Shown here: piece by piece, positions 33,268-41,655 of the stretch | Position numbering within the stretch: position 1 is the stretch's first letter | Layout of the letters: each line of letters opens with the position of its first letter | Source: a virus | DNA: 64,000 nucleotides | IMG/VR virus record: IMGVR_UViG_3300012929_000018 | Coordinates: 1 to 64,000 of that record | Reading direction: 5' to 3' (one strand) | Notes under the pieces: generated by a model | Databases searched by the model: none | What the model was told of the DNA's origin: nothing | The model's input: only the letters and a program-made list of their open reading frames with translations | Translations under genes and position numbers: made by a program

Positions 33268-33700
33268 CCACCACCGAAAAGGGTAGTGGCTACCTTAACC
33301 ACCACCAAGCCCACTTTCGTCGCAAGTGCTTTTAACGAATGGCCTTACGTGTATTTTGGGCACAAAACAGTGGTGGTAGCCAAATTCAAACCCTTCCGGC
33401 CGGAAGCTTGATTTTGAGCATAATATGATTATTTTTTTTTTCCAATGGAAGAAATAAGAAATGCCACTACCCACTACCTAAATCGAGAAGCCCTGCAACC
33501 CTGCTACATTCTACGCAATACCTATGATAAACGTTACCAAATTACAGGGCTGCAGGGCTTTAGGGAAGTAGGTGCCTAAGCAGGCAGTTACTCAGGGTGT
33601 CAAAATGGCACACTTCTTATATTTGCTGTTCGCGAATATCGAATATGAGAGGATTTGTAAAGGTTTCCGACGCTTTTCTTGAAACACTGTGGAGTTGGTG
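33268..33700. other. AT-rich non-coding gap, candidate replication origin
   Basis: Directly after primase/helicase; poly-T tract, CCACC/CCACTA repeats in both orientations, inverted pair of CCCTG iteron arrays. Confidence 0.45.
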
Positions 33701-33768
33701 TCCGAATGCGCCAGTTTCTTCCGAATCGCGCCATTAATCCCGCCATTGTGTCGCGATTGGATGACGAG

Positions 33769-33841
33769 AGCCGGAGACAGGCTTCGAACCCGTGACCGTC
33801 GGTTTACAAAACCGCTGCTCTGCCGACTGAGCTACACCGGC
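33769..33841 (-). tRNA. tRNA-Thr (TGT), no encoded CCA
   Basis: GCCGGTG-TA-GCTC..GAGC, anticodon loop TT-TGT-AA, T-loop TTCGAAG. Confidence 0.88.
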
Positions 33842-33852
33842 TCTCGTCGCCC

Positions 33853-33999
33853 TTAGCCGCCCTTCGCGTCTTTGCTCGGGAGGATATATTTGATCACAGC
33901 CGCAATCGCTTGCCCCGCCTTGTGGAGAGGATTTGCTTACGCCGGAACCGCCGCGACCATACTCGCAGCCACTAAACCGATCGTGATAAGTTTCTTCAT
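33853..33999 (-). pseudogene. small secreted peptide gene interrupted by an in-frame TAA
   Basis: MKKLITIGLVAASMVAAVPA*ANPLHKAGQAIAAVIKYILPSKDAKGG; stop at 33937-33939. Confidence 0.5.
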
Positions 34000-34081
34000 G
34001 AGCAGCAGCCTACTCCCCGCCCGGCGCCGCGCAACTACTAATTTCTTGAAAAATAGTAATTGGGGCGTATGCTCCCGGCCT

Positions 34082-34237
34082 ATGGCAGCTATTGTAACCC
34101 GCCCTGTGTGGCAACTGCTTCTGGCGATCTACCTGATCCTCGTTTGCGTCAACGCCTTCGTCGGCCTTGGGTCCGCGGCAATTATTGTCCCGATCCTCGC
34201 CGGTCTCGCTGGCCTCCTGATGCTTGTTGGAAAGTAA
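34082..34237 (+). CDS. 51-aa two-helix membrane protein
   Basis: MAAIVTRPVWQLLLAIYLILV..LAGLAGLLMLVGK. Confidence 0.65.
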   Translation: MAAIVTRPVWQLLLAIYLILVCVNAFVGLGSAAIIVPILAGLAGLLMLVGK

Positions 34238-34240
34238 CCC

Positions 34241-34684
34241 GTGAAGCTCAAACTTATTTCTGAGGCCGGGCTCGGCTTAGCCCTGCTCTGCGCCCTCGTT
34301 GTAGTCCCGATTCTTCAACCGAAGCCCTATCGCCCGACTGGGCCGGACCCTGATGCCGACTCGCCTATTGTCATTTTACAGAGAATTGACGCAGACTCCG
34401 TGCAATGTAAGGCCAAGCCGACCTGTGTTTGGAAACGACACGGCGATGGGCACACTGCAACCTTTCATCTCGAACTTACTACCGTATGCCCGGCCGCTGG
34501 CGCCGACAAAACTTACGTTTCTCGCGAGGCTACCGTTGATGCGGCCAAGGACCAATCCGGTGAGGTTGGCGCGGCCCTTCTCGTGATGATGGCGAATGAA
34601 ATCGTCGCGGCGGCTGGGAAAGACGGATTCGAGATGACTCCTAAAGCCTTGCTGCAGAGTTGCAACATGGAAGAAGTGAAGTAA
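34241..34684 (+). CDS. membrane-anchored hypothetical protein
   Basis: N-terminal hydrophobic helix, several Cys. Confidence 0.6.
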   Translation: MKLKLISEAGLGLALLCALVVVPILQPKPYRPTGPDPDADSPIVILQRIDADSVQCKAKPTCVWKRHGDGHTATFHLELTTVCPAAGADKTYVSREATVDAAKDQSGEVGAALLVMMANEIVAAAGKDGFEMTPKALLQSCNMEEVK

Positions 34685-34692
34685 TATCCCTC

Positions 34693-34839
34693 ATGCCTGC
34701 TGAGAGCCAAGCCCAACGTGGATACCTGAATGCAAGATTCGGTCACGCATGGGTTAAGAAACATCATTTCGATAACAAGGGTGCTCTCCCCGCTCACGTC
34801 AAGCCAAAGCCGCGTAATCAACACGGCATCGGCCATTGA
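34693..34839 (+). CDS. 48-aa basic phage peptide (not in the ORF track)
   Basis: MPAESQAQRGYLNARFGHAWVKKHHFDNKGALPAHVKPKPRNQHGIGH; MPxxSxAQR N terminus recalled from phage micro-proteins. Confidence 0.6.
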   Translation: MPAESQAQRGYLNARFGHAWVKKHHFDNKGALPAHVKPKPRNQHGIGH

Positions 34840-34841
34840 CT

Positions 34842-34914
34842 AGGGCAGTAGCTTAGCGGCTAGAGCATCTGGTTTGGGGCCAGGGTGGCGTGAGTTCGAA
34901 TCTCACTTGCCCTA
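34842..34914 (+). tRNA. tRNA-Pro (TGG), no encoded CCA
   Basis: AGGGCAG/TTGCCCT acceptor, loop TT-TGG-GG, T-arm GTGAG-TTCGAAT-CTCAC. Confidence 0.85.
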
Positions 34915-34923
34915 GTCAGCGGC

Positions 34924-35775
34924 CTAATAATCCATCCCGCACACGAACGCGCGAGCAATTATCTTGAGAATCTTGCGCCGGTTCCTGCGGTGCTTCCGGC
35001 TTTCCTCGCCGAGCAGCCTCATCATCGCGGGCATCCTTGTGGCCCTGTGATACTTCATCGCCAATCGGTCGTTTGCGTTTGCCCAGCCTTGTCCCGCCCA
35101 CTTCATTTCGCGGTAGCTGGCGCCGAGGCGCGGGTGCCACAGGTGAAGGATTTGGTTGCGAGTCGATTTGTGCTTGGCGTAAAGGGTGTCCAGAGACCGG
35201 AGCAGAGCCACATCCTCGCCGCCCCAGCCAACGAAGCGTTCGTCGAACCCGCCGAGAATGTTGTAAGCCTCGCGGGGAAACATCATAATCATCGCGCCAT
35301 ACCGGTGCCCGTAACTGGCTTTGGTCGTGCTCTCAACATCGCATGCGTCCGGCGGTGTCGGAAACTTGTATGGGAACTTCGGCGCAGAGCCTAGCACTTT
35401 CAAAGTAGCGGCCTCAGTCAGCCGATACAGCTTTCGGTAAGGAACGAACCACAGTCGGTTGCCTTCTTTCTGCTCCTCGATGATGCGGTCGGCGCACCTA
35501 TCAATCACGTCAGCGTCGATATAAGCGTCAGCGTCCAAGATCACGAGGACTTTACCGTTGGCCCGGCGAGCGGCTCGGTTCATCGCGCGCGTCTTGCAGA
35601 AAGGATTCCCTGCAGCCCTGCCGATGATAATCTCGCAGTCAGGCAGCGCGTTGCGCATATACTTAATCACCCAGCGTAAGATTTTGCGCCGATACTTGTC
35701 ACGCCCATGGAAGGGAATGAGCAAGCTGATCTTCGGCCGCCGGAGCTTGTGCTTATCTAAAATAGTTTTCCACAT
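34924..35775 (-). CDS. GT-A glycosyltransferase (GT2 with GT7-like C-terminal motif)
   Basis: ISLLIPF, VILDAD (DxD), GGFDERFVGWGGED, HLWHP. Confidence 0.9.
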   Translation of the reverse strand: MWKTILDKHKLRRPKISLLIPFHGRDKYRRKILRWVIKYMRNALPDCEIIIGRAAGNPFCKTRAMNRAARRANGKVLVILDADAYIDADVIDRCADRIIEEQKEGNRLWFVPYRKLYRLTEAATLKVLGSAPKFPYKFPTPPDACDVESTTKASYGHRYGAMIMMFPREAYNILGGFDERFVGWGGEDVALLRSLDTLYAKHKSTRNQILHLWHPRLGASYREMKWAGQGWANANDRLAMKYHRATRMPAMMRLLGEESRKHRRNRRKILKIIARAFVCGMDY

Positions 35776-36490
35776 CTTCAAATACCTCGAACAGTTGGTG
35801 CTGTAGATCGCTGATCTTGTGCGGGTCGGCAGTCATCAAGACACCAGGTTGAAATTTCATCCCTACACTAGCATGATAATCCCTCCACTTAAAGTCTCCA
35901 CCTTCTTGATGGGCGTGGGTGATCATTCGCGGCGCCAACTCGATCCGGCGAGGGATAATGAAAGCGTCGGCAACGATCGCTCCGTGAAGGGAAGAGGTTA
36001 CGATCTTTTTGCACCGGCTGATTTCGCGAAGCACTTCCATCGGGTCTTGGGAAACGTCGATGATCCTCGGGTTGAATTTGGTGAACCGCGGGTCAAGAGC
36101 CAACGTCTTGTCGGTCCAGTGGGGCACGATGCCAAGGTCGTATTCCTTATCGCGGTAGCCTACCAGTTCGTCTGCGAGTAAGCCGGGGTCGGCCATAACC
36201 ACATCCCTCTTCAAACCTTTGGCGGTAAGGGGCCCGCGCACGGCAAGAAAAGTAGCGTGAGGTAGGTCAATCACGGTGCTTTCGTGGAGCTTACCTACCC
36301 CGGCAACTACTCCGGTCCAGTTCTTAGGTAGATGCCCTAGAATGGATCCGATCACAACTAGCTCAGCTTCTTCTGGCTTCGCCCAAACAGACTCGAGATT
36401 TGCGAATCTTCGGAGCAACATGGTCGCCAGCCGGTCGCCGAAGTTTGGTTTGTCTTTCCAAAAATATGCTTTTACGGCGGCGTGGATCAC
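35753..36490 (-). CDS. polysaccharide pyruvyl transferase family protein (ExoV-like)
   Basis: NFGD, IGSIL, AVRGPLT, DPGLL, GIVPH, TSSLHGAIVADAF, FKWRDY. Confidence 0.85.
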   Translation of the reverse strand: MIHAAVKAYFWKDKPNFGDRLATMLLRRFANLESVWAKPEEAELVVIGSILGHLPKNWTGVVAGVGKLHESTVIDLPHATFLAVRGPLTAKGLKRDVVMADPGLLADELVGYRDKEYDLGIVPHWTDKTLALDPRFTKFNPRIIDVSQDPMEVLREISRCKKIVTSSLHGAIVADAFIIPRRIELAPRMITHAHQEGGDFKWRDYHASVGMKFQPGVLMTADPHKISDLQHQLFEVFEDVENYFR

Positions 36491-36637
36491 AACATTTAGT
36501 GTATCACGGCTTCGTCCGCTTGCTGTGAAAAAGAAAAATTCTTGAAAAGTTTTTTGCCGGGGAGTAGATTTTCTCAGCCCGAAGTGGATTAAAGGCTGAA
36601 CAGGTCCCAGCAGAATTGGACCCAACGGAGGTAATGA

Positions 36638-37174
36638 ATGAAGAAAGTAATAATCGGAACTCTGTGCAGCGTGGCCCTAGCACTAGGCGCCTATGCGCAG
36701 ACGAATGAGGTAAGCATCAAGCAAAGTGAACGCGGCCCAGCGATGGGTCAACATGAGCGGGTGCAAACCAAAACGGAAATGCGCGGGTCTCCCCGGCAAA
36801 TCCATCGCATGCAGCGAGACCAAATCCGAGAAACCGCAGGTGAGAACCGGCGTATCGAGGAGCATGGAAACGCTGTAATTGAGCGCGGCCATCCACGGAC
36901 TGAGGTGCGCTCGGAGCAGCGCGTTGAAACCCGCGGTGATCGGTTCTTCTTCTTCGGTGGGCGAGAGCTTCACCGTCGAGGCGACTTCGACCGTAACGAC
37001 GTGCACTTCCGCATCGGATTCCACCCTCGATTCTGGTGGACCCAGCACTACACCAACATCGTATTGATCAACGGGTGTTGGTATTACGAGGACGGCGGGT
37101 TCTTCTATCCGGCATACGGATACGACCCTGATTGCAGTTACCCTGACCAAGTGATCTTCTCATTTGGCGACTAA
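36638..37174 (+). CDS. secreted Arg-rich protein with Trp/Tyr-rich C terminus
   Basis: Signal peptide (..ALGAYA-Q); HPRFWWTQHYTNIVLINGCWYY..YPAYGYDP. Confidence 0.75.
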   Translation: MKKVIIGTLCSVALALGAYAQTNEVSIKQSERGPAMGQHERVQTKTEMRGSPRQIHRMQRDQIRETAGENRRIEEHGNAVIERGHPRTEVRSEQRVETRGDRFFFFGGRELHRRGDFDRNDVHFRIGFHPRFWWTQHYTNIVLINGCWYYEDGGFFYPAYGYDPDCSYPDQVIFSFGD

Positions 37175-37189
37175 GGGCGGCGGTTAGAT

Positions 37190-37229
37190 AAGACGCGTAG
37201 TTGGCAGAATCTGTCAGCTACGCGTTTTT
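37190..37229 (+). terminator. hairpin terminator
   Basis: AAGACGCGTAGTTGGCAG-AAT-CTGTCAGCTACGCGTTTTT. Confidence 0.7.
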
Positions 37230-37269
37230 ACTTCTAGCATAATTTGGCTAATTTGTGTATAATTCGCGC

Positions 37270-37347
37270 ACCGGGATAGAGCAGCCTGGCCAGCTCGTCA
37301 CGCTCATAACGTGAAGGTCGTGGGTTCAAATCCCACTCCCGGAACCA
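37270..37347 (+). tRNA. tRNA-Met (CAT), initiator-like, CCA encoded
   Basis: A1/A72 mismatch, TAGAGCAGCCTGG D-arm, CT-CAT-AA loop, TTCAAAT T-loop, ACCA end; TATAAT just upstream. Confidence 0.9.
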
Positions 37348-37352
37348 ATTGT

Positions 37353-38313
37353 ATGCGCTTTATACTACTGTTCTTATTGCTGGTCTCACGCTTGACTTAC
37401 GCCGGTGATACCTACGACTGCATCAACTCGAAGGGTGACTACATCAATTACGGACCGCCCGCACCGCCGCGGAACACCTCAATCGTTGGCGCGATCGATT
37501 CCCGCCGATACGACCGGTGGCTCCCGATGTTGAGCCAAGAAGATGAACGCCGCCTGCTGTTTATACAGGCTGCTCGACTGCGCGAATACGCCATTCTTTA
37601 TGCCAACCCCTGAACAACGCGATGAAGGCCGCCCCTGTGATTGGGAGCCAGAAGAACACGACCCGATTATGGTGGCCGCAATCAAGCGGCTTACTGATGA
37701 AGTTCAGCGATTGAAGCGTGAGGAACGCGAGAAGGCCATCAATGCCGTCTCGGAACAATGCACCTGCACCGCCCTTTTCACGAACGCCTTATGCCCAATT
37801 CACGGCCCAGCGTTCACTCGCCACCTCGAAAATAGAAAGTAACTATGCCCTCCCTCGTATCCGTATCCGAAGCAACCCGAGCCATTCAAAGCCCGTTGTT
37901 GCGCGCCATTGAAACCGTCGTCTCCGAAGAGATTGAAAAAGTCATCGAAGACGCGAAACGCAAAGTCGAGCAGAGAGTTCGCGGTGAAGTCGGTGCCATA
38001 GCCGCCCGTGTCCTTGAGAAGTTCAGCTTCGAGAGGCTGGGGCAGGAGTTAGTGATTCGTGTTGAATTCCCTGGCGCTAAGAGTAAGCTGCCGGGTGATC
38101 TGTAAACCCGTAACCCCGATCCTCGAATGCCCGGTTTGTCCGGCGACGTGGGATCTGGGAAAGGTAGGAGTTCGCGGGCTCGATTATCAAGTGCCGATGC
38201 ATGTCCGAGTTCAATTTCGGGCACCGGCGATTCTCTGCGCGGGCTCGCACAAGAAGCTTCCGCTAACCTTTTACGACGCCGCGCCGTTGTCTCATGGCGA
38301 GCCACTGGCCTAA
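37353..38313 (+). other. four short overlapping hypothetical ORFs (37353-37613 with signal peptide, 37600-37842, 37845-38105, 38095-38313)
   Basis: Tightly packed or overlapping starts and stops. Confidence 0.55.
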
Positions 38314-38388
38314 CCGCCGGTGCGTGAACTGAGACAAGTTGGCTCCCTACGTTGGAGAGCGACTTTCTGTCTCACTGGCGATTAAGGT

Positions 38389-38460
38389 GTGACCGTAGCT
38401 CAATTGGCAGAGCCCTCGGTTGTGGACCTTGAGGTGCGAGTTCGATCCTCGTCGGTCACC
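38389..38460 (+). tRNA. tRNA-His (GTG), irregular anticodon stem, no G-1, no CCA
   Basis: GTGACCG/CGGTCAC acceptor, C73, loop TT-GTG-GA, T-loop TTCGATC. Confidence 0.75.
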
Positions 38461-38630
38461 CCTTAGTCGCTCACCTTCGGGTTTTTATAGGAAAAAATTT
38501 TTTAACCTCCCCTCATCACCTACACACCTGCACGTGCGGGGGCCCGCGGGGGTAGGGGTGGGTCTGCTTCTGGGAGCAGGCATAAGCGCGCTCGCGTGAT
38601 GCCTGCGCATAATGCGCGGGAGATGGTCGA

Positions 38631-41499: not shown

Positions 41500-41575
41500 T
41501 GTAAGGTAGCTCAGTTGGTAGAGCAGGCGCCTGTTAAGCGCCGCGTCGTAGGTTCGACTCCTACCCTTACAGCCA
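41500..41575 (+). tRNA. tRNA-Asn (GTT), CCA encoded
   Basis: Canonical cloverleaf: TGTAAGG/CCTTACA, GGCGC-CTGTTAA-GCGCC, G73-CCA. Confidence 0.95.
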
Positions 41576-41579
41576 ACAC

Positions 41580-41650
41580 ACAGGGGGCGAAGGCAGTAGC
41601 GCGAACTCCAAATCCGCGTGTGATGAGTTCGATTCTCATACCCTGTGCCA
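41580..41650 (+). tRNA. tRNA-Trp (CCA) with truncated D-arm
   Basis: Loop CT-CCA-AA, T-arm ATGAG-TTCGATT-CTCAT, G73-CCA; only about 14 nt in the D region. Confidence 0.65.
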
Positions 41651-41655
41651 CTTTT

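Follow-up and report, generated by a model that had tools for sequence, protein, structure and literature searches.

How can a transfer RNA (tRNA) be matured, or serve as a working tRNA, when both of its ends are sealed in a helix formed by its own flanks? The question is raised by three phage tRNA genes, for Thr, Pro and His, which lie in a 64,000-nucleotide stretch of viral DNA (the window), namely positions 1–64,000 of the 82.5-kb IMG/VR record IMGVR_UViG_3300012929_000018; genome-wide counts given below refer to all 82.5 kb. In each of them the 5' leader pairs with the 3' trailer, prolonging the acceptor stem by about 11 bp, and we refer to this extension as the clamp.

The record is 100% complete according to CheckV, has a G+C content of about 54%, and encodes a family A DNA polymerase, an RIIA-like protein, collagen-like tail fibres and a DUF5906 primase-like protein. 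The stretch is present in one soil DNA run, with no RNA run among those listed, and blastn and tblastn searches against cultured phages found no close relative. Five tRNA genes, on which ARAGORN and the Rfam model RF00005 (gathering cut-off 29 bits) agree, are scattered between protein genes rather than arrayed, and are therefore probably transcribed as segments of longer RNAs.

Extended acceptor-stem helices of three tRNAs

Reading the leader back from position −1 against the discriminator base 73 and the trailer revealed the helices listed in Table 1. In tRNA-Thr, 10 of 11 positions are paired, including one G·U pair, with a single C·A mismatch; tRNA-Pro likewise has 10 of 11 positions paired, including one U·G pair, with one A·C mismatch. 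In tRNA-His, a U·C mismatch at −1:73 marks the exact junction of acceptor stem and extension and is followed by 11 consecutive pairs, two of which are G·U. These counts reproduce in register those of an earlier interpretation made without database searches (the sequence-only reading), whose quoted arms and coordinates (33759–38471) are exact. A repeat search recovered identical arms as inverted repeats at the three loci. In minimum free energy (MFE) folds with 25-nt flanks, all three extensions continue the acceptor stem straight, giving regular double helices of about one to two turns in one register with it. The extension and the 7-bp acceptor stem together make an 18-bp rod, or 23 bp counting the T stem.

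The two other tRNA genes, for Met and Asn, serve as unclamped controls. Over the first 12 positions, the in-register pairs number 10 for Thr, 10 for Pro and 11 for His, against 5 for Met and 3 for Asn, and the leader–trailer duplex energy is −15.1 (Thr), −15.7 (Pro) and −16.8 kcal/mol (His), against −7.9 (Met) and −1.8 kcal/mol (Asn). In tRNA-Met, a weak pairing of the flanks lies past the CCA and does not share the register of the acceptor stem. As the sequence-only reading had noticed, CCA follows none of the Thr, Pro and His genes as placed by ARAGORN and Rfam; position 74 is C in Thr and His and G in Pro. Within this genome, all three clamped genes lack an encoded CCA, and neither of the two CCA-bearing genes is clamped. 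A third CCA-encoding control had been named as tRNA-Trp (~41577–41651), but no program calls it: ARAGORN gives no call even at a relaxed threshold, nor does Rfam give a match at E ≤ 5. That stretch, which starts a few bases 3' of tRNA-Asn, lacks a regular D arm, although acceptor stem, T arm and CCA are present.

The clamped tRNAs all score above the RF00005 cut-off, as expected for a canonical cloverleaf, and their elbow and T-loop elements are canonical. In the Rfam alignment, their anticodon loops retain U33, the anticodon and a purine at position 37. The anticodon stem had been described as imperfect in each; this stands for His, with two mismatches, and for Thr, with G27·A43 (besides U6·U67 in the acceptor stem), but not for Pro, in which there is only a U·G wobble.

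Some further repeats touch the arms. Upstream of tRNA-His, the segment 38354–38364 is 91% complementary over 11 nt to 38465–38475, which covers part of the 3' arm and bases beyond it; this alternative pairing, for which chance is conceivable, would possibly free the 5' arm. A tandem repeat with a 10-nt unit (33848–33867) overlaps the Thr leader arm, and another with a 12-nt unit (33724–33747) lies beyond the Thr trailer.

Table 1. Positions of the tRNA genes, the arms of the clamp helices and the open reading frame (ORF) next to tRNA-Pro
Feature	Positions	Strand	Remarks
tRNA-Thr(UGU)	33769–33841	minus	ARAGORN; Rfam 58.2 bits; no encoded CCA
Thr clamp, 5' arm (leader −11 to −1)	33842–33852	minus	In-register pairing with 33759–33769; inverted repeat
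Thr clamp, 3' arm (discriminator 73 and trailer 74–83)	33759–33769	minus	In-register pairing
48-codon ORF	34693–34839	plus	TGA stop 34837–34839 inside the 5' arm of the Pro clamp
tRNA-Pro(UGG)	34842–34914	plus	ARAGORN; Rfam 58.4 bits; no encoded CCA
Pro clamp, 5' arm	34831–34841	plus	In-register pairing with 34914–34924; inverted repeat
Pro clamp, 3' arm (73–83)	34914–34924	plus	In-register pairing
tRNA-Met(CAU)	37270–37344 (37347 including CCA)	plus	ARAGORN, Rfam; encoded CCA; unclamped control
tRNA-His(GUG)	38389–38460	plus	ARAGORN; Rfam 50.8 bits; no encoded CCA
His clamp, 5' arm (−12 to −2)	38377–38387	plus	Pairing with 38461–38471; inverted repeat
His clamp, 3' arm (74–84)	38461–38471	plus	In-register pairing; inverted repeat
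tRNA-Asn(GUU)	41500–41572 (41575 including CCA)	plus	ARAGORN, Rfam; encoded CCA; unclamped control

Rarity of the helix among other tRNAs

Could such complementarity arise by chance in a genome of 54% G+C? We slid the same 12-position test along both strands of the 82.5-kb genome. Single sites with at least 10 of 12 pairs do occur, at 0.18% of positions (P = 0.0018), and at least 11 pairs are found with P = 0.00024. At the former rate, three of five tRNAs would reach this level with a probability of about 6e-8 by our own arithmetic, and the pairing is retained in unrelated sequence of a relative, as described below. Chance complementarity is thus effectively refuted.

We then compared the clamped tRNAs with those of bacteria and of other phages. 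The bacterial genomes are only proxies for that of the host, and most of their tRNAs are CCA-less. The bacterial baseline of 93 tRNAs consists of 22 tRNA-Thr look-alike loci, 41 tRNAs of one Acidimicrobiia genome and 30 of one Phycisphaerales genome. Look-alike loci were those sharing a 33-base tRNA-Thr core, 24 in number, and the whole tRNA is readable in 23 of them, L028 being cut off; the ARAGORN total in this run, including the window and relatives, was 103, and two tRNAs without flanks were dropped. None of the 93 tRNAs reaches 10 of 12 in-register pairs, the maximum being 8, and none of the 23 readable look-alike loci has a leader–trailer helix. The sequence-only reading had asked whether CCA-less host tRNA genes show the extension routinely, and in these proxies they do not. 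The closest bacterial tRNA-Thr, from the Acidimicrobiia, is identical to the phage gene at 64 of 73 positions, which is too distant to name a host. A tRNA-Val of the Acidimicrobiia genome G001 (L053) has a perfect 8-bp helix offset by four unpaired leader bases, the sole such out-of-register helix among the 93.

The phage baseline comprises 102 distinct tRNAs (Tunturi_5, 41; CcrSC, 29; Myrna, 29; three distant relatives of the phage, 3), of which one reaches 10 of 12 pairs, namely tRNA-Thr(cgt) of the Caulobacter phage CcrSC. In CcrSC, this tRNA and tRNA-Leu(caa) each have a leader–trailer helix (L114:281–394 and L114:677–800). The former has 13 of 15 positions paired, including the encoded CCA, and the tRNA is a weak folder like Thr and His of the present phage; the latter is a 9-bp helix directly after ACCA. 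The Thr helix is found in CcrBL9 and RB23 as well, thus in three Bertelyvirus genomes, by identity and with no compensatory change, and therefore adds no evidence of selection. The extension is rare and not routine in the proxy bacteria, yet it is not unique to this phage. A literature search, with most subscription journals outside its coverage, found no description of long leader–trailer helices on phage or viral tRNAs.

Pairing retained in a relative

A 2.1-kb soil contig, L015, encodes a primase fragment 84% identical to the phage protein and carries counterparts of the Thr and Pro loci. Its tRNA-Thr differs from the phage copy by one T-loop base. The flanks of the two Thr genes cannot be aligned beyond the first five base pairs, yet those of L015 pair at 9+3+3 positions. 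Within the helix, an A–U pair becomes C–G at −6:78, and the C·A mismatch at −8:80 becomes G–C. The Pro locus is 93% identical to L015, with an unchanged 5' arm; the sole change in the 3' arm turns G–C into G·U at −11:83, retaining the pairing, and a T-stem pair of tRNA-Pro changes from U–A to C–G. In a three-row gap-free alignment of the two Thr loci (phage and L015) and the Pro locus, 90.9% of the cells are paired in the extension and 90.5% in the acceptor stem; sliding the whole structure by 1–3 columns leaves 34–45% of the cells paired. Because the Thr flanks have changed in sequence and still pair, the comparison supports, by evidence that is real but thin, selection that maintains the pairing.

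The surroundings of tRNA-Thr as a whole (33640–34000 versus L015:1020–1380) are unalignable, beside a Pro locus that is 93% identical; the Thr spot is a local hypervariable site around a minus-strand tRNA within a plus-strand region. Turnover of a mobile cassette is conceivable at such a site, and the helices might accordingly be a DNA-level feature with no role in RNA: scars left by a mobile cassette that carries a tRNA, sites that it recognises, or else an older hairpin, for example a terminator, into which a tRNA was inserted. We consider this very unlikely. The repeat search found no direct repeats or tRNA fragments flanking the three genes, no terminator-like site is listed at any of the three helices, and a scar would not need to line up exactly with the acceptor stem, as all three helices do. 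The two G·U pairs of the His helix would read A·C on the opposite strand and only work in RNA of the tRNA sense, which is therefore favoured, and the pairing survives the sequence change in L015.

Several specific structures were tried and rejected. An intrinsic terminator does not fit the loci, where no terminator-like site occurs at the helices and no U run follows the trailer arms. The archaeal bulge–helix–bulge motif is a 4-bp helix between two 3-nt bulges, whereas the phage helices run uninterrupted in the folds except for single mismatches. Nesting of each tRNA in broken older copies was dismissed, as no direct repeat between flank and tRNA exists at the three loci. Rfam found no ribozyme at the tRNA loci.

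Further relatives were sought in several ways. Single-protein scans of viral contigs with the primase-like protein and the DNA polymerase gave no match, and a profile search of viral contigs gave relatives only at 32–35% identity. A profile search of metagenome contigs yielded 16 loci, among which L015 only carries the tRNAs, and exact-pattern scans of viral contigs with the Thr and His bodies gave no match. An 87%-identical primase homologue exists on a 20-kb contig. Among five whole records of distant relatives, three have one CCA-ended, unclamped tRNA each, and one further record has none.

Weak tRNA bodies and folding in context

Folding each body alone gave the cloverleaf as the MFE structure for Met and Asn. 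Thr and His form none of their seven acceptor pairs in the predicted fold, and Pro forms all seven with a wrong interior. Counting the acceptor stem as formed at no fewer than six of seven pairs, it forms in the body alone in all 78 bacterial class-I tRNAs and in 74 of 85 from other phages. Five tRNAs of other phages form no acceptor pair, the clamped CcrSC tRNA-Thr(cgt) among them. Thus, three of the four tRNAs with in-register clamps (three here and the one in CcrSC) form no acceptor pairs, compared with 4 of 86 unclamped phage tRNAs, an association with p of about 0.001 by our own post hoc hypergeometric arithmetic.

We next folded each tRNA within 80 nt of native sequence on each side and shuffled the 11-nt 3' arm. 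The mean acceptor pair probability dropped from 0.77 to 0.16 for Thr, from 0.37 to 0.00 for Pro and from 0.98 to 0.21 for His, and Asn was insensitive (0.94 and 0.86). In the case of Pro, the repeat search revealed upstream messenger RNA (mRNA) segments complementary to the D arm and the T stem. In silico, the clamp makes the acceptor stem form within the surrounding mRNA-like transcript. This link between clamp and weak acceptor stem goes beyond the sequence-only reading and adds a predicted role as folding clamp.

Putative maturation route

In bacterial tRNA maturation, RNase P and RNase Z or exonucleases act on single-stranded flanks, and RNase Z requires an accessible trailer. In each of the three precursors, eleven leader bases would form a helix with the discriminator and trailer that stacks on the acceptor stem of 7 bp, so that the RNase P and RNase Z sites would be buried. 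The premise of the sequence-only reading that RNase P needs single-stranded flanks agrees with PMC10731613, according to which the kcat/Km of E. coli RNase P falls about 10-fold when two leader bases pair with the 3' RCC, and an extended stem must unwind before it can reach the active site. The same article describes a −1 mismatch as a determinant for eukaryotic RNase P, and extended stems have been linked to aberrant cleavage (PMC5499578). Since two paired bases already slow RNase P by an order of magnitude, a helix of 11 bp and about −15 kcal/mol should block the ordinary route.

We tentatively favour a model in which the helix is an RNA-level folding clamp and processing stalk that is removed by a double-strand cut, likeliest by host RNase III. 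The helix would help dispersed, co-transcribed phage tRNAs to fold. With the RNase P and RNase Z sites buried, a cut by a double-strand-specific nuclease would be needed first, most likely by RNase III (Mini-III in some lineages), the one bacterial enzyme of general occurrence that makes such cuts, and host enzymes would then perform the final trimming and CCA addition. The usual cut of RNase III leaves a 2-nt 3' overhang. If such a cut produced the 5' end at +1, position 74 would be the last base of the 3' strand; any encoded CCA would be lost, and one base would have to be trimmed before CCA addition. A CCA in the gene would then serve no purpose, and this would account for its absence from the clamped genes. 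Precedents are consistent with the enzyme, as RNase III frees the small cytoplasmic RNA (scRNA) of B. subtilis by cutting both sides of a leader–trailer stem (PMC1935012), and the 34-nt minimal hairpin muR1.1 is a substrate, so that short helices suffice (PMC1540722). Profiles of RNase III, CCA-adding enzyme, Thg1 and Lactamase_B_2 (RNase Z-type) found no match in the phage genome; therefore, host enzymes would have to act.

The same sealed ends could have another meaning, namely that the helix is never removed and the three RNAs are non-chargeable tRNA look-alikes, used as decoys or sponges against tRNA-attacking or tRNA-binding host factors, for example anticodon nucleases. The acceptor ends offer arguments in both directions. 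tRNA-Pro has A1–U72 (34842, 34913) with A73, and tRNA-His has U at −1 (38388) facing C73 (38460), with no encoded G−1. In bacteria, C1–G72 with A73 is an identity element for charging tRNA-Pro, and G−1 facing C73 is an identity element of tRNA-His; the tRNA-Pro genes of the reference bacteria G001 (Acidimicrobiia) and G002 have C1–G72 in four of four cases, and their tRNA-His genes have G−1 and C73 in two of two. These marks are gone at the junction with the helix, but tRNA-Thr retains G1–C72 and C2–G71, which are marks for threonyl-tRNA synthetase. The lack of an encoded CCA in all three genes, together with the lack of a match to a phage CCA-adding enzyme, fits RNAs that are not charged, as do the Thr and His bodies that are predicted to form no acceptor stem without the stalk and the hindrance of RNase P by such pairing (PMC10731613). 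Intact anticodon loops would suit a bait for nucleases, but tRNA-His, with two mismatches in its anticodon stem, resembles the usual nuclease target poorly, and no defence or counter-defence gene is linked to the three loci. Moreover, the canonical elbow and T-loop and the scores of 50–58 bits are those of ordinary tRNAs, and the codons ACA and CCA make up 19% of the Thr and 20% of the Pro codons of the phage, which fits ordinary supplementation. On balance, we regard permanent look-alikes as unlikely. The sequence-only reading had offered a distinct maturation route or non-chargeable decoys; its premise about RNase P is supported, and so, in part, is its interpretation.

The helix might also act solely as a clamp that insulates the folding tRNA and is opened by breathing, a helicase or a ribosome, whereupon RNase P, RNase Z or exonucleases and the CCA-adding enzyme would finish the ends. 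The dependence of the predicted acceptor stem on the 3' arm and the upstream segments complementary to the D arm and T stem of tRNA-Pro are in keeping with this idea. So is the 48-codon ORF upstream of tRNA-Pro, whose TGA ends two bases before position 1 of the tRNA. At 25 bases this ORF differs from its counterpart in L015, and the codon differences are synonymous in 16 cases and non-synonymous in 3, which clearly points to a real gene under purifying selection. With the stop inside the Pro arm, translation and clamp formation would therefore be mutually exclusive on one RNA, and a terminating ribosome would open the Pro helix. However, an ORF enters an arm at Pro alone, as the listed ORFs near His stop about 50 nt upstream of the arm; a helix of eleven pairs and about −15 kcal/mol would hardly open by breathing, and two paired leader bases alone cost RNase P about 10-fold (PMC10731613). 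A clamp without a dedicated cut therefore appears distinctly improbable.

One side observation concerns the unclamped tRNA-Met, which has an A1·A72 mismatch. A TATAAT hexamer ends 7 bases 5' of its position 1 (37258–37270); there is no good −35 hexamer, and the site is absent from the listing of the scan that gave no terminator-like site at the helices. Given this spacing, the transcript might start at or beside +1 and be leaderless.

Comparison with known RNA systems

The leader–trailer stalks of bacterial 16S and 23S ribosomal RNA (rRNA) are cut by RNase III. Like these stalks and that of the scRNA (PMC1935012), the phage clamps arise from pairing between the sequences on either side of a stable RNA. 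The known stalks are cut on both sides by a double-strand nuclease and then trimmed by exonucleases, steps that we only infer for the phage clamps. The cargo of the phage clamps is a tRNA, the stalk is only 11 bp long, and it is stacked unbroken on the acceptor stem, and would therefore hide the RNase P and RNase Z sites. The E. coli leader–RCCA pairing (PMC10731613, PMC5499578) has the same geometry, in which the leader pairs past position 72; it involves 2–3 pairs with an encoded CCA and slows RNase P, whereas the phage helices have 11 pairs with a non-CCA trailer.

Two other phage systems may be compared. The T7 sites R1.1 and muR1.1 (PMC1540722) are short helices of similar size in a long phage transcript and sites of host RNase III, but they are plain hairpins with defined proximal and distal boxes for the E. 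coli enzyme. The hepatitis delta virus (HDV)-like theta ribozymes (PMC10879173) are phage RNA devices that lie beside tRNAs and alter their maturation, as is proposed here for the clamp; they self-cleave, whereas the clamp is a plain helix.

The tRNAs of phage T4 without an encoded CCA offer a further parallel. Like the clamped tRNAs, they depend on the host both for 3' processing, which is done by RNase BN/Z, and for CCA, which is added by the CCA-adding enzyme. To our knowledge, no leader–trailer helix has been described for them.

Discussion

Several points weigh against a removable stalk that doubles as a folding clamp. The covariation comes from one relative and essentially one tRNA (Thr), and the L015 helix is longer, with up to 17 positions, which argues against a fixed distance of 11 bp from the base of the helix. 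The link to the missing CCA fails elsewhere, in that an encoded CCA lies inside one CcrSC helix and just before the other, and 27 CCA-less tRNAs of Myrna have no clamp. tRNA-Met folds poorly in context and yet is unclamped. In addition, the fold predictions are thermodynamic and ignore modifications and tertiary contacts, and a weak body would stay weak once the clamp has been cut off, a property that a permanent stalk fits equally.

This window contributes a clamp with compensatory change, the link to weak acceptor stems and an ORF stop inside an arm. If both ends of a tRNA are sealed by 11 bp, either a double-strand nuclease would take part in tRNA biogenesis, as it does for rRNA, or these RNAs would not be working tRNAs. 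In either case, the counting and interpretation of phage 'tRNA genes' in work on codon usage, host range and defence would have to be revised. Were the stalk permanent, CCA-less clamped phage tRNAs would form a separate class of tRNA mimics and not precursors. The clamp is easily scored from sequence and recurs in a cultured Caulobacter phage, which makes it testable at the bench. The association of clamps with weak acceptor stems points to a possible general rule, by which a flanking helix allows tRNAs that are drifting or have been deliberately altered by a virus to fold nonetheless within long messages.

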